DNA from: Acidobacteriota bacterium
GTDB lineage: Bacteria > Acidobacteriota > UBA6911 > RPQK01 > JAJDTT01
Direction of reading: 5' to 3'
DNA length: 64,000 nucleotides
NCBI GenBank assembly: GCA_965263035.1
Contig: OZ253580.1
Coordinates: 4,224,001 to 4,288,000 of the forward strand
Shown here: piece after piece, positions 34,960 through 43,725 of the stretch
Numbering within the stretch: the stretch's first letter is position 1
Layout of the letters: each line of letters opens with the position of its first letter
Notes under the pieces: model-generated
What the model saw: the letters and a program-made list of their open reading frames with translations, nothing else
What the model was told of the DNA's origin: nothing
Databases searched by the model: none
Position numbers and translations under genes: made by a program

Positions 34960-37236
34960 TTGGCAAATCAATTGATCATCGGACTTTGGAGTTGGAATCG
35001 CCTGATCATTCTGGGCGCCGTTTTGGCGCTGGCCGGCTGCGGCCGGGGTGGCTCGGAGAAGGGAACTGCACCTTACGGGCTGACTGAGAGGACCCTCTGG
35101 AATACCTCGCGGGTCGTTGGATCTCCCGAACCCCCGCCGCCGTACCAGCTCCGGCGCGTCTTTCCGCAGTACACCTTCGAGAATCCGACCTTCATCGCTC
35201 AGGACCCGAACTCGGAGCGGCTGTTGGTCGCCGAGTACGAGGGCCGGATCTACAGCTTCCAGGGGAACGATCCCGATGCCGGGAAAGACCTCTTCCTGGA
35301 CTGGAACCGCCGGGTTTCGGCCTTTTCCTTCCATCCGCGGTACCGCGACAACGGCCAGGTGTTCGTCTTCAGCCCGACCGACCCCAAGCTGGAAGGCAAG
35401 AAGGATGAAGAGGGCAACCCGGTCACACAGCTCAGCCGGGTCTCCAGGTTCGAGTTGGAACCGGGAAGCGCTCCGCCGCGGCTGCGTCCCGAATCGGAGA
35501 AGGTCATCATCCAGTGGCCGGCCGGTGGGCACAACGGCGGCGAAGCCATCATCGGTCCGGACGGGTACCTCTACGTTGCCACCGGAGACGGCACCGGATC
35601 CGCCGACCGCGACGATACCGGTCAGGATCTGGATGATCTGCTGGCGGTCATGATGCGGCTCGACGTGGAGCGGCCGGACCCCGGCCGGGCCTATTCCATC
35701 CCCGAGGACAATCCCTTCGTCGGCGTGCCCGGGGCCCGGGAAGAGATCTGGGCCTACGGCTTTCGCAATCCGTGGCGGTTCAGCTTCGATCCCGTCTCCG
35801 GTCGGCCCTGGGTGGGAGACGTGGGACAGGATCTCTGGGAGCTCATCGAGCTGGTCAGCCGGGGGAGCAATCACGGCTGGAGCCTCATGGAGGGCTCGCA
35901 CCCGTTCCATCCCAATACGAAGCCGGGTCCGACGCCGATCGTCCCGCCCGTCATGGAGCATCACCACCGGGAGAGCCGATCCATCACCGGCGGCTACGTT
36001 TACCAGGGAGACAAGTTCCCGGAGCTCCGAGGGGCCTACCTCTACGGGGACTACCAGTACGGCAAGATGTGGGGGCTGCGGTACGACCACGATGGGAAGG
36101 AGGTGGTCTGGCGCCAGGAACTCGCCGACTCGCCCGTCAAGATCGTCAGTTTCGGCCAGGGACGGGACGGAGCTTTCTATGCGCTGGACTACGACAGCGG
36201 TGAGATCTTCGAACTGGACCACCGGCCGGCGCCGGAGAAGAGACCGCCCTTTCCGAGGAAGCTGAGTGAGACCGGACTGTTCGCATCGGTGAAGGATCAT
36301 CGGCCGGCTTCCGGCGTCATCCCGTATTCGATAAACGTCCCCTTCTGGTCCGACGGCGCCGGCAAGGAGCGGTTTCTCGCCTTGCCGGGCGAGACGCGGA
36401 TCAAGTTCGACGAGGAAGGCACCTGGGAGTTCGGCGACGGTGCGGTGATGGTGAAGTCGTTCACCCTGGAGACCGAGGAAGGCAATCCGGAGACGCGCCA
36501 ATTCATCGAAACCCGGCTACTGGTGAAGCAGGTCGACCGGTGGGTCGGATACACCTACGCCTGGAACGACGAGCAGACCGATGCCGCGTTGGTGGAGGGG
36601 GACGGCCGAGACCGGACCTATCGGATCCAGGACGGGCGGGCGCCCGGCGGACAGAGAAGCCAAGTCTGGCGCTATCCGAGCCGGGAGGAGTGCATGTACT
36701 GCCATTCCCGCGCGGCCGGCTTCGCGCTCGGACTGAACACTCGTCAGATGAACCGCGACCAGGACTACGGCGAGACCACGGACAATCAGTTGCGAACGTT
36801 GGATCACATCGGAATCTTCAAGGAACCGCTCGAGAAGACTCCTTCAGAATACCCGGCCCTGCCGGATCCTTTCGGGACGGAGGCGGACGTGGAGGCGCGG
36901 ACCCGGGCCTATCTGCAAGTGAACTGCGCTATGTGCCATGCCCCGAGCGGCGGAGGAAACTCCCGGATCAACCTGACCTACACAGCGGAACCGGACAAGG
37001 TCCGCTTGATCGACGAGGCGCCGATTCACGACAACATGGGAGTAGACGGCGCCCGGATGGTGGTTCCGGGCGATCCTGAGCGGTCCCTTCTCTACCGAAG
37101 GCTGATCGTACGAGGTCTGAACCAGATGCCCCCGACCAGCACCAATCGGATCGACGAGCGCGGCGCGGAACTGGTGGCCGATTGGATCCGGCACCTCGGG
37201 ACCGAGTCCAAGCTCACTGCAATGTCGGTGCATTAA
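34960..37236 (+). CDS. PQQ-dependent (glucose/sorbosone) dehydrogenase-family lipoprotein with cytochrome c motifs
   Basis: Lipobox LAGC; HNGG, YGFRNPWRFSFD, GDVGQ, SITGG; CMYCH and CAMCH. Confidence 0.85.
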   Translation: MANQLIIGLWSWNRLIILGAVLALAGCGRGGSEKGTAPYGLTERTLWNTSRVVGSPEPPPPYQLRRVFPQYTFENPTFIAQDPNSERLLVAEYEGRIYSFQGNDPDAGKDLFLDWNRRVSAFSFHPRYRDNGQVFVFSPTDPKLEGKKDEEGNPVTQLSRVSRFELEPGSAPPRLRPESEKVIIQWPAGGHNGGEAIIGPDGYLYVATGDGTGSADRDDTGQDLDDLLAVMMRLDVERPDPGRAYSIPEDNPFVGVPGAREEIWAYGFRNPWRFSFDPVSGRPWVGDVGQDLWELIELVSRGSNHGWSLMEGSHPFHPNTKPGPTPIVPPVMEHHHRESRSITGGYVYQGDKFPELRGAYLYGDYQYGKMWGLRYDHDGKEVVWRQELADSPVKIVSFGQGRDGAFYALDYDSGEIFELDHRPAPEKRPPFPRKLSETGLFASVKDHRPASGVIPYSINVPFWSDGAGKERFLALPGETRIKFDEEGTWEFGDGAVMVKSFTLETEEGNPETRQFIETRLLVKQVDRWVGYTYAWNDEQTDAALVEGDGRDRTYRIQDGRAPGGQRSQVWRYPSREECMYCHSRAAGFALGLNTRQMNRDQDYGETTDNQLRTLDHIGIFKEPLEKTPSEYPALPDPFGTEADVEARTRAYLQVNCAMCHAPSGGGNSRINLTYTAEPDKVRLIDEAPIHDNMGVDGARMVVPGDPERSLLYRRLIVRGLNQMPPTSTNRIDERGAELVADWIRHLGTESKLTAMSVH

Positions 37237-37304
37237 TGGACCCGGTGGAGCGGCGATTTCCAGTCGCCGAACAGGAGCAGCGATTTCCAATCGCCGACCT
37301 CCCC

Positions 37305-39341
37305 ATGAACGGTAACCCGACAAGTCTCATGAACTCGTCCTCACAACAAATGCCGAGTCTCCGCAATTCCGTCTTGAAGATCTGCCTCTGCCTGCCCTGG
37401 ATGCTCTTCTTGCAGGCCCAGAGCACCAGCCGCCAGCTCACCCCCCTTCTGGAACGGGAAACCCTGGAACCGGGGTTGCTTCATCATCTGCTCGGCGAAT
37501 ACCTGCTGTCGCGATCTCCACAATTGCCGCCACTCCCCAGCCGTCCCGAAGAGTGGACGGCCCAGGTGAACGACATCCGCAGGAAGCTACTCCGGGAGGT
37601 GGTCTATCACGGCTGGCCCCAGGAATGGGTTAATGCACCCCTTCGTTTCCGAGAGGTGGGAGCCCCCCAGCAACAGCGAGGATACCGCCTCCGCAAGCTC
37701 CTGTTGCAGGTCTTGCCCGGCCTCCAGATCCCGGCACTGCTCTACGAACCGACGGGAGACCGGAGTTCCTTGCCGGCGGTCCTCAACGTGAACGGCCACG
37801 TCCGAGGCCCCGGCAAGTCCGTCGAGTACAAGCAGAAAAGGTGCATCAGCCTGGCCCGCCGCGGCGTGCTGGCGCTGAATCTGGAATGGCTGGCCTGCGG
37901 CGAGCTGTCCCATCCCGAGAACCAGCACTGGTTCGGCGCTCATCTGGACCTGGTGGGAGCCAACGCCATCGGACTCTTCTACCTGGCCATGCGGAAGGGG
38001 CTCGACTACCTGGAACAGCATCCCCGGGCCGATCCTAAGCGCTTGGCCGTCACCGGACTCTCGGGCGGCGGTTGGCAGACCATCATCCTCTCCTCCCTGG
38101 ACGAGCGGGTCGCCGTGTCCGTTCCGGTGGCCGGCTACTCGGCCCTGATCTCGAGAGTCGAACGGCCGCAAGACACGGGGGACATCGAGCAGAACGCCAC
38201 CGACCTGCTCCGGGGTCAGGACTACTCGACGTTGACCGCCATGCGGGCGCCCAAGCCGACTCTGCTGATCTACAACGCCGAGGACGAATGCTGCTTCCGG
38301 GCTCCCTTGGTCAGGCCCTACATCTACGACGACGTCAAGCCCTTCTTTGGCCTCTTCGGAAAGGGAGACCATCTGGGCTGGCATGAAAACACCGACCCCT
38401 CGACCCACAACTATCAACTGGACAACCGGCTTCAAGCCTACCGGCATCTGTCCCGGCATTTCGGCCTCGGGGATTGGGACCGTGAGGATCCCGTCGATCG
38501 GGAGATCCAGAGCTATGAGGATCTGGTGGTCGGTCTCCCGGAGGACAACCTCACCATCCTGGGCGTGGCGCGCCAGTTGGCCGACAGGAAGCTGCGGGAA
38601 GCGGACCCGGAGGAAGGTCGGGCGGTCGAAGATGTCGAGGACCGCAGGGCAAGACTTCGATCGCTGGTGCGTTTCCAGCCGGTGGCAGTCAAGCATGGGT
38701 GGGCGCTCCACAACACCAAGAATCGGGGGGTGGAATCGTATTCCTATCGAGTTCACTTCAGCGACGGACTCGTTGCATCCGCCCTCTGGGGGAAGGGAAT
38801 CGCCACTGCGGAGGGCGCTCCAGCCTCGATCCTGCTTCTGGACGAGGGCAAGGCGAAGGCGGGCCAACGAGCCTCAGACCGGATCAACCGGGGGGAACAG
38901 GTGCTGGTGGCGGACCTGATCCTGACCGGGGAAGCGCAGCCCCGGAGGAGGAATGCGTCGGACTCCCACCGCTACGCCCAACTCCTGGCCACGGTGGGAG
39001 ACCGGCCGCTGGGGATACGGGCTTCGCATCTCCTGGCTCTGGCCGGATGGCTCAAGGACAATCACGCCGCGGCGGAGGTCCGGGTAGAAGCTCAGGGATT
39101 CCGGAGCCAAGTGGTGGCCCTGCTGAGCGCGGCGCTGGACCCCGCGGCCTTTTCGGAGGTCAGGGTCGAGAAGGGCATGAAAAGCCTGCGCCACCTACTG
39201 GCCAAACCGGTCCGCTACAGCGAGGCTCCGGAACTGTTCTGCCTGGGGCTCTTTCCTGAATTCGATCTGGAGCGCCTGGTTCTCTTGGCCCGACCCACCC
39301 CGGTGGATCAGCGCGTCGAATCATCGGATTCCGGAGATTGA
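37305..39341 (+). CDS. Alpha/beta hydrolase (acetylxylan esterase-like), copy 1
   Basis: TGLSGGGWQT nucleophile motif; exact start uncertain. Confidence 0.8.
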   Translation: MNGNPTSLMNSSSQQMPSLRNSVLKICLCLPWMLFLQAQSTSRQLTPLLERETLEPGLLHHLLGEYLLSRSPQLPPLPSRPEEWTAQVNDIRRKLLREVVYHGWPQEWVNAPLRFREVGAPQQQRGYRLRKLLLQVLPGLQIPALLYEPTGDRSSLPAVLNVNGHVRGPGKSVEYKQKRCISLARRGVLALNLEWLACGELSHPENQHWFGAHLDLVGANAIGLFYLAMRKGLDYLEQHPRADPKRLAVTGLSGGGWQTIILSSLDERVAVSVPVAGYSALISRVERPQDTGDIEQNATDLLRGQDYSTLTAMRAPKPTLLIYNAEDECCFRAPLVRPYIYDDVKPFFGLFGKGDHLGWHENTDPSTHNYQLDNRLQAYRHLSRHFGLGDWDREDPVDREIQSYEDLVVGLPEDNLTILGVARQLADRKLREADPEEGRAVEDVEDRRARLRSLVRFQPVAVKHGWALHNTKNRGVESYSYRVHFSDGLVASALWGKGIATAEGAPASILLLDEGKAKAGQRASDRINRGEQVLVADLILTGEAQPRRRNASDSHRYAQLLATVGDRPLGIRASHLLALAGWLKDNHAAAEVRVEAQGFRSQVVALLSAALDPAAFSEVRVEKGMKSLRHLLAKPVRYSEAPELFCLGLFPEFDLERLVLLARPTPVDQRVESSDSGD

Positions 39342-39405: not shown

Positions 39406-39759
39406 GCCCCCTGGGAGCGGGGACATTCTTGTCCCCGTCTTCATCGCCGACGTGGAACCGGCGGCAGGAAAGCTGTTGCTCCCAGACACCCCGTTTTTCT
39501 GGTTGGCTTGCGCCGGTCCGGAGCCGTTGGGGGCTACTAAGGAGGCTCTATACCTCTCAATATCTGAAGCTTCGTGGAATTCTCAGAGAAGTTGACTGTC
39601 CCCTTCTCACGCCTCCCGTTCGAACGACCCGGCTCCCTGGTCCCGCGGCTGATCCGATAACGTACTTTATTGGAGTCTGATTCCTTCTCCGGGTGCATCG
39701 CGGATTCCATCGTGGTCCGAGACTCCGGAAAGGGATAGAATAGGCAGAGAGGAGAATGC

Positions 39760-39984
39760 ATGTTCGACACGCTCACCGCTGCCGATCAACTTACCGCCGC
39801 CGGAATCGAGCCTCAACAGGCCAAAGCGATCGTGGCTGTCGTTCGCTCCAGTGAAGAGTCCGCCGTCACCCGGACCGAATTGGAAGCGGCGCTGGCCCAA
39901 CTGGAAACCGGGCTCTACAGGGCACTCCTCGTGCAGACTCTCACCATTGGCGGGTTGGTCGTCGCCTTGCCCAAGCTTCTGTGA
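39760..39984 (+). CDS. Small DUF1640/CCDC90-like coiled-coil membrane protein
   Basis: MFDTL...L.AAG....QA.AI; C-terminal TM; RBS GAGGAG. Confidence 0.7.
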   Translation: MFDTLTAADQLTAAGIEPQQAKAIVAVVRSSEESAVTRTELEAALAQLETGLYRALLVQTLTIGGLVVALPKLL

Positions 39985-40531
39985 ACGTGACCGCAGAGAA
40001 GGTGACTGTCCCCTTCTCAAGTCCGCCTCGGGACCGAGTCCAAGCTCGCCGCATTGTCGGTACACTGATGAATCCGGTGGAGCGGCGATTTCCAATCGCC
40101 GAACAGGAGTATCCATGTTGCAAGTGGTGGGTGCTAATCGGTGTTTCCATCCCGTGTCGTTAGTACGTGATCTGTCCGGTCCAAAGGGCACAGGGTTAGG
40201 AGGAGCGTTCTTCCGCCGGAGGTGAGGCGGAGATCGAGCTGGATCCGCCGGGCGCCGTGCAGGGGGCGATGAGTGGACCGATAACTGGATCGAGGGGCCT
40301 GAGATCGTCGACGTCAGTCCTCCGGGAGGTCCGGATACGCCCTGGGGAGCGCCGGGTCAAGCCTCCGGCTCCTCCGCTTCGCTGCGCCCCTTCGGGTGAC
40401 CCGGCGCTCCCCAGGGCGTGAAGAGCTTTCATGGCCGTAAGCAAGCTTCCGGCCAGACTTGACCGGAAGTTCGACAGACGGCCATCAGGGGGTCCACACG
40501 CTCCCTTTCCTCACGGGGTCTCTCCGTGGCC

Positions 40532-41479
40532 TCAGAAGGTCGCTCGGGGCGCTACGGGCAACCAGGTGCGGTCCTGCCGGACGAGGGTGTTGGCCAGGAC
40601 GATGAGCTTGCGCATGACGGCGACGAGGGCCACCTTGCCGGGCTTGCCGCGCTCGCTCAGCCTCCGGTACACCTCGGCCAAGTCGGGGTTCCAGCGCAGG
40701 GCGGCCACCGCCGGCATGTACAGGAGCCGTCGCGCCCGCGCCCGTCCGCCCCGGATGAAGGCCCGGCCCTGCCAAGTCCCCGACTCGCGCGGAACGGCGG
40801 CCAACCCGGCCAGACTGGCGGCGGCCTTGCCGCTGAGGGCGCCCAGCTCGGGCATCTCGGCCAGCAGACCGGCGGCGGTGGTGGCCGCGATCCCCGGGAT
40901 GGAGGTGAGGATCTCCAACTTGCGGGCCCGCGCCTCGTCGGCCGCAATCAGCTGCTGCAATTTGCGGTCGATGGCGCGCAGGTGGCGCTCGAACATGTTG
41001 ATCTGGATCTGGTTCTGCTGTTTGAGCAGGGGTTCGCGGAGCTGTCGGCGGCGGTTGAGCGCGGCCGTGCGCTGGCGCATCAGCGCGTCCCGGGACGTCT
41101 GCAGATCCTGGAGCCGGCGTTGCGTTTTGGACGGCACCTGGGTCCGGCGCGGCTCCAGCGTGGCGGCCAGCTGGGCCAGTTTCCGAGCGTCTACGGCGTC
41201 GGTCTTGGCGCGGCTCCCGGTCGCCCGGGCGAAACACCGGGCCTGCCAGGGGTTCACCTTGGCCAACGGCAGCTTCGCTTTGGACAGCGCTTCCTCGAGG
41301 TCCCGGTGGTAGGGACCGGTGGCCTCGTACGCGACGCACTCGACCGGAGTTCCGATCCAATCAATCAGCGCCCGGAAGCCGGCCGGGTCATTGTCGAACT
41401 GGGCGGAATGGCCGTCGGCCAGCCGGTGCGCGTCCAGGTGCGCTTTCGAGATGTCGATGCCTACGGTATGCTGTTTCAT
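40532..41479 (-). CDS. IS110-family recombinase/transposase
   Basis: GIDISK, EATG, KTDAVDA (DEDD); SIPGI; ESG catalytic Ser; VAVMRKL. Confidence 0.95.
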   Translation of the reverse strand: MKQHTVGIDISKAHLDAHRLADGHSAQFDNDPAGFRALIDWIGTPVECVAYEATGPYHRDLEEALSKAKLPLAKVNPWQARCFARATGSRAKTDAVDARKLAQLAATLEPRRTQVPSKTQRRLQDLQTSRDALMRQRTAALNRRRQLREPLLKQQNQIQINMFERHLRAIDRKLQQLIAADEARARKLEILTSIPGIAATTAAGLLAEMPELGALSGKAAASLAGLAAVPRESGTWQGRAFIRGGRARARRLLYMPAVAALRWNPDLAEVYRRLSERGKPGKVALVAVMRKLIVLANTLVRQDRTWLPVAPRATF

Positions 41480-41484
41480 CTTTC

Positions 41485-41645
41485 CTGTCTCCTGTGCTTG
41501 TCATTCGGGCCTTGATGCCCTCGTATCCATTCAGGACATCGGGAAAGACGGTGGCCGACCTCACTCCCATACGGTTCGTAACAGTCCGCGGCGGTACGGT
41601 CCAGCCACCGCCGTCCGGGTCGCTCATGAGCGACCCGGACGGCCC
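41485..41645 (-). ncRNA. Predicted bridge RNA of the IS110
   Basis: 5' hairpin followed by four guide segments matching target and donor in the expected order; ends approximate. Confidence 0.8.
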
Positions 41646-41688
41646 CATTTAAACAGACAAGCGGCGGTTTCCAGCCGCCGACCTCCCC

Positions 41689-43725
41689 ATGAACGGTAAC
41701 CCGACAAGTCTCATGAATACGTCCTCACAACAAATGCCGAGACTCCCCTATACCGTCCTGAAGATCTGCCTCTGTCTGTCCTGGATGATCGTCCTGCAGG
41801 CCCAGAGCACCAGCCGTCAGCTCACGCCCCTTTTGGAACGGGAAACCCTGGAGCCGGGGTTGCTTCATCACCTGCTCGGAGAATACCTGCTGTCCCGTTC
41901 TCCACAATTGCCTCCACTCCCCAACCGTGCGGAAGAATGGACAGCTCAAGCAAACGACACCCGACGGAAGCTGCTCCGGGACGTCGTCTATCGCGGCTGG
42001 CCCGGGGACTGGGTGGAAGCCCCGCTCCGTTTCCGTGAGGTCGGTCCGCCGCAAGAACACCGCGGCTACCGCCTCCGAAAGCTCCTGCTGCAAATCTTGC
42101 CCGGCCTCCAGATCCCAGCACTCCTCTACGAACCGACGGGAGACCGGCGTCCCCTGCCGGCGGTTCTGAATGTGAACGGCCACGTCCGAGGCCCCGGCAA
42201 GTCCGTCGAGTACAAGCAGAAAAGGTGCATCAGCCTGGCCCGCCGCGGCGTGCTGGCGCTGAATCTGGAATGGCTGGCCTGCGGCGAGCTGTCCCATCCC
42301 GAGAACCAGCACTGGTTCGGCGCTCATCTGGACCTGGTGGGAGCCAACGCCATCGGACTCTTCTACCTGGCCATGCGCAAGGGGCTCGACTACCTGGAGC
42401 GGCATCCCCGGGCCGATCCCAAGCGTCTGGCCGTCACCGGACTCTCGGGCGGCGGTTGGCAGACCATCATCCTCTCCTCCCTGGATGAGCGGGTGGCGGT
42501 GGCCGTGCCGGTGGCCGGCTACTCCGCCCTGATCTCGAGAGTCGAACGGCCGCAGGACACGGGGGACATCGAGCAGAACGCCACCGACCTGCTCCGGGGT
42601 CAGGACTACTCGACGTTGACCGCCATGCGGGCGCCCAAGCCGACTCTGCTGATCTACAACGCCGAGGACGAATGCTGCTTCCGGGCTCCCTTGGTCCGGC
42701 CCTACATCTACGACGACGTCAAGCCCTTCTTTGGCCTCTTCGGAAAGGGAGACCATCTGGGCTGGCATGAAAACACCGACCCCTCGACCCACAACTATCA
42801 ACTGGACAACCGGCTTCAAGCCTACCGGCATCTGTCCCGGCATTTTGTCCTCGGGCCCTGGGACCGGGAGGATCCCGTCGATCGGGAGATTCAGAGCTAT
42901 GAGGATTTGGTGGTCGGTCTCCCGGAGGACAATCTCACCATCCTGGGAGTGGCGCGCCAGTTGGCCGACAGGAAGCTGCGGGAAGCGGACCCGGAGGAAG
43001 GTCGGGCGGTCGAAGACCTCGAGGACCGCAGGGCAAGACTTCGATCGCTGGTGCGTTTCCAGCCGGTGGCAGTCAAGCATGGGTGGGCGCTCCACAACAC
43101 CAAGAATCGGGGGGTGGAATCGTATTCTTATCGAATCCACTTCAGCGACGGACTCGTTGCATCCGCTCTCTGGGGGAAGGGAATCGCCACTGGGGACGGG
43201 GCTCCAGCCTCGATCCTGCTTCTGGACGAGGGCAAGGCGAAGGCGGGCCAACGAGCCTCGGACCGGATCAACCGGGGGGAGCAGGTGCTGGTGGTGGACC
43301 TGATTTTGACCGGGGAAGCGCAGCCCCGGAGGAGGAACGCGTCGGACTCCCACCGCTACGCCCAACTCCTGGCCACGGTGGGGGACCGCCCGCTGGGCAT
43401 TCGAACTTCACATCTGTTGGCCCTGGCCAAATGGCTCAAAGACCATCGCGCCGCGCCGGAGGTCCGAGTCGAAGCCCAGGGTTTCCGGAGCCAGGTCGTG
43501 GCCCTGCTCGGCGCAGCGCTCGAACCCACGGCCTTTTCGGAGGTCAGGGTCGAGATGGGCATGAAGAGCCTAAGCCACCTGCTGGCCAAGCCGGTCCGCT
43601 ACAGCGAGGCTCCGGAACTGTTCTGTCTCGGGCTGTTTCCTGAGTTCGATATGGAGCGCCTGGTTCTCTTGGCCCGGCCCACCCCGGTGGAGCAGCGCTT
43701 CCAGGCGGAGAATTCCGGAGATTGA
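41689..43725 (+). CDS. Alpha/beta hydrolase (acetylxylan esterase-like), copy 2
   Basis: Near-identical protein to 37305-39341. Confidence 0.8.
   Translation: MNGNPTSLMNTSSQQMPRLPYTVLKICLCLSWMIVLQAQSTSRQLTPLLERETLEPGLLHHLLGEYLLSRSPQLPPLPNRAEEWTAQANDTRRKLLRDVVYRGWPGDWVEAPLRFREVGPPQEHRGYRLRKLLLQILPGLQIPALLYEPTGDRRPLPAVLNVNGHVRGPGKSVEYKQKRCISLARRGVLALNLEWLACGELSHPENQHWFGAHLDLVGANAIGLFYLAMRKGLDYLERHPRADPKRLAVTGLSGGGWQTIILSSLDERVAVAVPVAGYSALISRVERPQDTGDIEQNATDLLRGQDYSTLTAMRAPKPTLLIYNAEDECCFRAPLVRPYIYDDVKPFFGLFGKGDHLGWHENTDPSTHNYQLDNRLQAYRHLSRHFVLGPWDREDPVDREIQSYEDLVVGLPEDNLTILGVARQLADRKLREADPEEGRAVEDLEDRRARLRSLVRFQPVAVKHGWALHNTKNRGVESYSYRIHFSDGLVASALWGKGIATGDGAPASILLLDEGKAKAGQRASDRINRGEQVLVVDLILTGEAQPRRRNASDSHRYAQLLATVGDRPLGIRTSHLLALAKWLKDHRAAPEVRVEAQGFRSQVVALLGAALEPTAFSEVRVEMGMKSLSHLLAKPVRYSEAPELFCLGLFPEFDMERLVLLARPTPVEQRFQAENSGD

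Follow-up and report, generated by a model that had tools for sequence, protein, structure and literature searches.

A probable IS621-type bridge recombinase and its four guides in the genome of a sponge-associated Acidobacteriota

The element, its recombinase and its copies

We analyzed an IS110-family element located in a stretch of 64,000 nucleotides (nt) of the genome of a sponge-associated Acidobacteriota bacterium (contig OZ253580.1, positions 4,224,001 to 4,288,000), hereafter called the window. The element lies on the minus strand and is 1554 bp long including the CT dinucleotide at both of its ends (window 41661..40108). It carries a recombinase gene of 315 amino acids (aa; 40532..41479) between a left end of 182 bp and a right end of 424 bp. 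The original prediction had read the non-coding left end as a bridge RNA, with two guides for the target and two for the donor, i.e., the joined ends of the element itself. The results presented below make it very probable that the element is an IS110-group insertion sequence moved by bridge-RNA-guided recombination, as is IS621. Independent lines of covariation, together with the homology of the protein, give good support to the reading of the left end as an IS621-type bridge RNA, and the system is real and probably active.

The recombinase has an N-terminal DEDD RuvC-like domain (PF01548, DEDD_Tnp_IS110, E-value 4.8e-22) and a C-terminal Tnp domain (PF02371, Transposase_20, 4.6e-19). It scores 206 bits against the NCBIfam model NF033542, 'IS110 family RNA-guided transposase', whose cut-off is 140. 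Among solved structures, it matched only the transposases of ISCro4 (9t56, 8e-36) and IS621 (8wt6 and related entries, 1.6e-32), over residues 3-299. Residues D9, E52, D94, D97, and S233 align with positions 13, 62, 104, 107, and 243 of the IS621 chain. Assuming an offset of two residues in the chain of the Protein Data Bank (PDB), these positions are D11, E60, D102, D105, and S241, which make up the composite active site of IS621 according to PMC11208158 (cited here, as is PMC11208160, from excerpts).

We searched for copies of the element in the genome of the window, which comprises 6.2 Mb in one contig. The left junction was found in 13 copies, i.e., the window copy and 12 others. The inventory comprises nine full-length copies at 96.7-100% identity, three that lack ~75 bp internally, close to the right end, one truncated copy, and one solo right end. 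All 13 left junctions read ..G-CT-TGTCTG, where the left CT (41660..41661) is the dinucleotide at which target and donor would cross over. The right ends read ATGGATA-CT followed by the flank in the 12 complete copies and in the solo right end (right CT, 40108..40109). In the window copy, the left junction is ..AACCGCCG-CT-TGTC.. (CT at 41661-41660) and the right one is ..CATGGATA-CT-CCTG.. (CT at 40109-40108).

The ends of the element are fixed because the similarity among the 12 further copies stops exactly at these CT dinucleotides, and because the window contains a paralogous unoccupied site (37219..37333, minus strand). At this site, the flanks are contiguous (37345..37200) and share one single CT, in ..ATCGCTG-CT-CCTGTT.., between the same pair of hairpins resembling repetitive extragenic palindromes (REP) that surrounds the element. 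The element has no terminal inverted repeats, since only 11 of 40 end positions match. The ATGGATA that terminates the right end (40110..40116), i.e., the left donor half-site, is kept in all relatives (44-100% identity) in which a right end was found.

Fold of the left end and agreement between guides and sites

The left end folds into three parts, a 5' hairpin followed by two internal-loop domains, all on the minus strand. The hairpin (41610..41643) counts 34 nt, with a perfect stem of 15 bp and a 4-nt CAUG loop. The target-binding domain (41550..41609) has the basal stem GGUGGCUG.ACC / GGU.CGGCCACC around both target guides, and the donor-binding domain (41480..41547) has the stems CUUUCC/GGAAAG and UCCUG/CAGGA and the inner stem GGGC/GCCC. 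When we derived the positions anew, the perfect hairpin and the four guide strings came out where the original prediction had placed them. The 171 nt upstream of the ATG have a minimum free energy of -85.8 kcal/mol (z-score of -5.5), and none of 200 shuffles folds as well. A scan of 39500-42200 against Rfam returned no family at threshold, the best matches being chance microRNAs and small nucleolar RNAs (best E-value 0.56).

The stems covary in an alignment of 17 left ends, which comprises four variants from the same genome, ten sequences from Acidobacteriota (44-93% protein identity), and three from Alphaproteobacteria (39-44%). From these, RNAalifold recovered the basal or closing stems and the inner stems, left the guides unpaired, and gave six of 19 pairs changed on both sides. 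The 26-pair structure derived from the window fold pairs in 93.6% of the cells of the alignment, versus 38-54% when the partners are slid by one to three columns, and eight of its pairs show compensatory changes; as this structure was taken from one of the aligned sequences, the numbers somewhat favor it. The basal stem of the target domain (11 pairs) is paired in 93.9% of the cells, with two pairs changed on both sides, and the three helices of the donor domain in 87.9-100%, with six such pairs. Shuffles reached the observed covariation in 0-1 of 500 cases on four of five measures and in 131 of 500 on the remaining one, 'further standard pair types'. In the relative G044, two pairs of the 5' stem are changed on both sides; in farther relatives, this place is taken by another hairpin.

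These patterns bear on two other explanations of the left end. An open reading frame of 86 aa (41648..41388) crosses the region, and the strings might thus be part of the coding sequence of a small protein. We rejected this frame because the relatives differ here by gaps of 1 nt and by other non-triplet gaps. Moreover, the copies differ at guide positions and, in the stems, by paired changes, and long chance frames are common at 62% G+C, so that we regard a small protein as next to impossible. The other explanation is that the four strings are subterminal repeats read by the protein at the level of DNA, or belong to a cis-acting leader that controls the translation of the recombinase. The 3' strand of the donor domain indeed spans the motifs GGAG and AGGAAAG just ahead of the ATG, and its fold could gate translation as well. 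Yet, the strings occupy the unpaired sides of two loops bounded by stems with compensatory changes, left guides having top-strand sense and right guides being complementary, which is the geometry of IS621 in the excerpted sources. The protein is also homologous to two recombinases solved in complex with such an RNA, and a translation leader has no reason to follow the insertion site base for base. The RNA-library contigs described below give no direct RNA evidence, which leaves some room for this explanation; it nevertheless seems to us very improbable.

In the bridge-RNA reading, the first loop describes the target. Its left guide, ACCGCCG followed by C (string ACCGCCGC, 41588..41595), has top-strand sense and agrees with the left flank AACCGCCG-C, as had been predicted; the base that follows is a G (41587), which mismatches the T of the core. 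For the right target guide, the original prediction had given GGGAG (41568..41564). This string is indeed present, but the comparison of guides and sites over copies and relatives reveals a guide of 7 nt, AUGGGAG (41570..41564), complementary to CT-CCCAT. The window copy itself sits at CT-CCTGT, where this guide needs two wobble pairs, versus a perfect match at CT-CCCAT. The paralogous unoccupied site agrees with the left target guide at only five of seven positions. Mononucleotide shuffling of the left end (180 nt), repeated 200000 times, never produced all four strings jointly. Singly, in the order left target, right target (GGGAG), left donor, and right donor, they were found at frequencies of 0.005, 0.42, 0.002, and 0.053. 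Hence, GGGAG alone is uninformative, since it is present in 42% of the shuffles; the 7-mer ATGGGAG has a frequency of 0.019.

The original prediction had made its case depend on whether other insertions match the guides, and we found that the guides track the sites both in this genome and in relatives. Among the ten copies whose left target guide is ACCGCCG, nine are inserted at ACCGCCG and one at GCCGCCG. The fifth base of this guide is changed from C to A in exactly three copies, and all three are inserted at ACCGACG. The same three carry UUGGGAG in place of AUGGGAG and lie at CT-CCCTA in place of CT-CCCAT: the changed bases agree with each other, and one neighboring mismatch remains. A single copy with AAAAGGAG lies at CT-CCTCTT and matches at seven of eight positions.

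Each of the three ACCGACG sites lies within an IS1182-family element, 37 bp inward from its end. Two of these hosts share 98.6% identity; with the third host, identity falls to 88.5%, compared with 98.5% for the inserted elements. Hence, at least two of the three insertions are independent. We had considered three independent events, which we rejected in part, since the two hosts at 98.6% identity may, judging from their similarity, represent one insertion that was duplicated later. The genome thus harbors two sublineages, one base apart in each target guide, with sites ACCGCCG-CT-CCCAT beside REP hairpins and ACCGACG-CT-CCCTA within the end of an IS1182-family element. On balance, and with considerable doubt, we are inclined to see in them a natural single-base retargeting caught in the act, by a compact recombinase of 315 aa that would be active, programmable, and tolerant of left guides matching half of the core. 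The IS1182-family element (NF033551, 281 bits for a cut-off of 270; L009:258-1415, minus strand) has at least eight copies in the genome. One of its sublineages has ACCGACG-CT-CCCTA and is the host of these three copies; another has ACCGAAG-CT-CCTTA, which is unoccupied.

To compare guides and sites more broadly, we gathered relatives from two sources: 76 genomes of the same order, ten of which had a match at E <= 1e-40, and a scan of genome contigs that gave 57 loci, all titled as metagenome-assembled genomes of Acidobacteriota or Alphaproteobacteria. We examined 67 elements, of which 63 have a recognizable target loop and 57 have both flanks. When the 12 distinct guide pairs are set against their modal cognate targets, 127 of 144 positions match. 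Permutations of the guide pairs gave a mean of 73.2 and a maximum of 110, and none of 20000 reached 127, a proportion that is no true probability, as the lineages are related and the registers anchored on the core.

The agreement is visible in individual cases. Among four relatives, the first has the left target guide GUCGCCG at the left flank GTCGCCG, the second CACGCCG at CACGCCG, and the third GACGCCG at GACGCCG together with the right target guide GUCUGGAG at CT-CCAGAC. In the fourth, the right target guide GAGGGAG stands at CT-CCCTC, and relatives with the right target guide CUGGAG occupy CT-CCAG sites. Two Alphaproteobacteria genomes have the left target guides UUCGUGU and AUUGUGU, with left flanks TTCGTGT (24 of 31) and TTTGTGT (3 of 3), respectively. 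Several elements stand outside the guide comparison: L060 and L038 (44-46% identity), whose loops align and whose ends cannot be fixed from single copies; the truncated copy at 5836385, L050, L055, and L057; and L102, L105, L106, and L110, in which the search pattern found no target loop. L040, L046, L047, L052, and L056 were read by eye only.

Some relatives have lengthened left ends. The distance from the left boundary to the first loop is ~630-700 nt in L034, L044, and L035, and ~370-380 nt in L037, L045, L051, and L059. In the first three, the extra DNA includes a second, degenerate segment that resembles the donor loop of the 58% lineage, as if elements had fused. These left ends may relate to the 'expanded IS110 loci' mentioned in the available part of a preprint (bioRxiv 10.64898/2026.08.14.744561).

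The second loop holds the donor guides. The left one, AUGGAUA followed by C (string ATGGATAC, 41523..41530), has the sense of ATGGATA-C at the right end, and the right one, GACAAG (41497..41502), is the complement of CT-TGTC at the left end. Both had been predicted at these places, and they match the joined ends of the element at eight of eight and six of six positions. All relatives down to 44% identity whose ends were found share ATGGATA-CT-TGTC and have guides that read those ends. Hence, relatives at or above 44% identity cannot test the second loop, since ends and donor guides are shared by all. Farther away, an element with 26 copies at 33% identity (G039) has the left end CT-TATAT and the right donor guide AUAUAAG, and a relative at 39% (G017) has CT-TGTAT and AUACAAG. 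Both have the left donor guide ACAGUCGC, which in G039 matches the right end ACAGTCG-CT (four aligned copies). This covariation of donor guides was read by eye, without statistics, and the comparison of right ends covers G039 only. In the first loop, GAAACCCU stands at GAAACC-CT in G039 and GCUAACC at GCTGACC-CT in G017 (six of seven positions). The right target guide is AGCCCAG in both, and was confirmed against CT-GGGCT in G039.

Both right guides end in AG opposite CT, so that both core bases are paired, and the two bases that follow them stand at the handshake positions described for IS621 (PMC11208158, excerpts). The UG directly 3' of the right target guide (41562..41563) would thus play the part of the handshake bases of the target loop, and the CA directly 3' of the right donor guide (41495..41496), read by eye, that of the donor loop. 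The handshake U is opposite the A at donor position 7, with which it could pair, and AGU is invariant in all 17 aligned sequences. The handshake C is likewise placed to pair with the G at target position 7 in the window element; among relatives, this base is A with T7 in Alphaproteobacteria and G with C7 in the relatives at 33-39%. The second handshake base can form a wobble only in the target loop and has no pairing in the donor loop.

Circle junction, transcription and surroundings

By homology with IS621, the element would be mobilized as follows. It would excise as a circle, in which ATGGATA-CT is joined to TGTC and TTGCAA is brought to 17 bp from TTAAAT. Transcription from this junction would give an RNA of ~170 nt with the 5' hairpin and the two internal loops, presumably a discrete species with defined ends that is bound by the recombinase. 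In the second loop, AUGGAUAC and GACAAG would read the joined ends of the element. The DEDD/Ser recombinase would catalyze the exchange of strands at the CT core, and the element would land next to a REP-like hairpin, at the consensus site ACCGCCG-CT-CCCAT.

The original prediction had proposed TTGCAA and TTAAAT as a weak candidate promoter across the circle junction, and their spacing of 17 bp is borne out. TTGCAA, the candidate -35 hexamer in the right end (40118..40123), and TTAAAT, the candidate -10 hexamer in the left end (41647..41652), agree with the consensus at four of six positions each. TTAAAT ends 4 nt ahead of the 5' hairpin, which begins at position 20 of the element. Among 15 right ends from Acidobacteriota relatives (57-100% protein identity), 13 keep TTGCAA ahead of ATGGATA-CT, the exceptions being TTGCAT in L035 and TTGACA in L036; two further loci showed no right end. 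In the integrated element, the target hairpin (41662-41680) and the T-rich start of the element (41651-41661, minus strand), just upstream of TTAAAT, obtain a terminator-like score. One might speculate that this site shields the element from read-through transcription.

The element was found in sponge metagenomes and in four metatranscriptome runs from two studies, and in three of these runs the left end is covered by contigs assembled from the RNA libraries. One study includes two runs whose short contigs over 41540-41620 reach word depths of 546 and 954, compared with ~15-290 over the gene, and in the other study the left end is less covered than the gene; contig depth cannot rank the parts of a gene in either case. 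Low-depth contigs of X19 and X20 join 41681 to 40079, where 30 other letters, with a single REP-like hairpin, replace the element together with its two flanking hairpins. They probably come from an allele, or from a related strain, that lacks the insertion, and are not identical to a precise empty site.

A number of observations weigh against the bridge-RNA reading. The junction promoter is weak, with eight of 12 consensus positions, and falls below the threshold of the promoter scanner, which also requires an A that TTAAAT lacks at its position 2; the scan of the linear locus gave no promoter-like site. The 13-nt motif of a circle or tandem junction has no occurrence in the genome, and no circle junction was seen among the displayed loose ends of the RNA-library contigs (23 others are outside the display). 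The RNA libraries were available as contigs and not as reads, which makes them blind to ends, strand, and level, with possible carry-over of DNA. In the fold, the inner stem of the target loop has merely 2-3 bp in the window lineage, as judged from the fold and by eye, whereas it is a clear GGCC/GGCC in the relatives at 57-58%. The limits of the guide permutation given above belong here as well. Finally, in the copies starting at 4766667, 2496251, and 5836385, the right target guide reads AAAAGCAG, a sequence that does not fit the base directly following the core in either of their known right flanks. These copies may be decaying: two of the three have an insertion of 1 nt immediately after codon 5, and their protein aligns from residue 6 onwards only.

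The core adds one further point of this kind. The layout of IS621 and its CT core, both claimed by the original prediction, are found in the element, but the two left guides read C then G and thus match only the first core base. IS621 prefers left guides that pair with both core bases (PMC11208160, excerpts). At the position of the second core base, the target guide of the relatives varies among U, G, and C, and their donor guide among G, A, U, and C. Hence, pairing of the left guides with both core bases would be a trait of IS621 and not one that defines the family, since the relatives vary at that position.

Some of these observations would also be expected if the element were a real IS110 member that no longer moves, i.e., if the window copy, or the whole lineage in this genome, were an immobile fossil whose guides record past activity. 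The missing circle junction, the three copies whose guide mismatches their own sites, and the two wobble pairs at the right flank of the window copy all fit this view. So does the damage in several copies: one frame is shortened at the C-terminus and counts 281 aa, another copy has internal deletions, and in two the alignment starts at residue 6. Still, ten of the 13 copies retain an open frame that aligns along the whole protein. Six copies, at six different loci, are 98.7-100% identical, with intact frames of 315 aa and identical guides, and the cluster at 90% identity around the exact protein has 294 members from several sources (none of the 40 listed members is named). The genome also still offers two perfect 14-nt sites, and the 11-nt core at 91 places. 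We consider a fossil unlikely, and retain the bridge-RNA reading for an element that is probably active.

The favored site is the 3' shoulder of a REP-like hairpin, CGGCGG-N7-CCGCCG. In the window, one such hairpin (41662..41680, minus strand) forms the left half of the target, as seen from its sequence and from genome counts, and a second one lies in the right flank (40083..40101). The 11-mer ACCGCCGCTCC occurs 91 times in the genome, compared with ~12 expected from composition. These hairpins belong to a REP-like family, CGGCG[GA]-N7-[CT]CGCCG followed by CTCC, often found in tandem arrays; GTCGCCGCTCC occurs 80 times, compared with ~12 expected. On the plus strand, two tandem paralogous genes that closely resemble each other (37182-39341 and 41689-43725) encode 678-719 aa, and a pair of REP-like hairpins precedes each of them. 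The element is 27 bp upstream of the ATG of the second gene, which the insertion probably separates from its upstream region. The genome also has four other IS110-family DEDD domains (at 3360524, 2038245, 4848500, and 2456933), in frames of 505-558 aa, which belong to a different element.

The right end includes a near-perfect palindromic repeat of ~83 bp (40337..40419) that accounts for part of its length. It is missing in three of the 12 complete copies, and similar palindromes are found at several other places of the genome (loci L018-L020 and L026). The RNA-library contigs of two runs omit 76 nt at this palindrome (40340 to 40417). This palindrome is probably an independent small repeat that became nested in the element and takes no part in its mechanism.

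Comparison with known systems

The analysis gives a well-documented natural ortholog of the bridge recombinases, whose target and donor can be spelled out, as can its four guides. It comes with a built-in natural control, since two guide variants and two matching classes of sites are present in one genome, which makes a simple swap possible. For engineering, it is a further candidate ortholog. Many orthologs have already been screened (bioRxiv 10.1101/2025.05.14.653916, available part), and the protein of the window may or may not be among them. A literature search on IS110 in sponge-associated Acidobacteriota found no paper on that combination.

The IS1111 group belongs to the same recombinase superfamily and follows the same RNA-guided logic, but its seekRNA lies downstream of the gene. 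In the window element, the guides are upstream of the gene, in the left end, and the right end contains neither the left target guide string nor that of the right donor guide. The ends of the element also differ from the IS1111 pattern in not being inverted repeats. Compared with the pattern typical of the IS110 group, the end lengths of the window element are reversed, the right end being longer than the left one. ISPpu9 and ISPpu10, IS110 members of Pseudomonas putida that target REP or conserved intergenic repeats, are similar in being multi-copy elements aimed at a repeated extragenic palindrome. They differ in host phylum and in sequence, and are likened here by the partial descriptions of them that we consulted. 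ISCro4, the best match among solved structures, was compared by protein alignment only.

The closest parallel is IS621 of E. coli (8wt6; PMC11208160 and PMC11208158, excerpts). Both recombinases have the two domains, and their catalytic D, E, D, D, and S align. In both elements, a non-coding RNA region in the left end presents a 5' hairpin followed by the target and donor loops, with left guides in top-strand sense, right guides complementary, and two bases at the handshake positions. They also share the CT core and the REP-type target, and the window element has a weak candidate for the promoter that IS621 splits over the circle junction. The proteins are distantly related (E-value 1.6e-32 over residues 3-299), with 315 aa compared with 328 in the PDB chain. 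The right target guide has 7 nt, while that of IS621 has 4 nt, to which an engineered extension adds 3, and the left guides of the window element match only the C of the core. Its right donor guide is a contiguous stretch of 6 nt, whereas nine RNA bases of IS621 pair discontiguously with seven donor bases. The original prediction had called the element a candidate new ortholog, which is a fair description. Proteins of this sort are already named RNA-guided transposases by the NCBI family model NF033542, and the understanding of bridge-RNA systems is left unchanged: the system was described in 2024, and the element of the window adds to it a new natural example, not a new kind of system.

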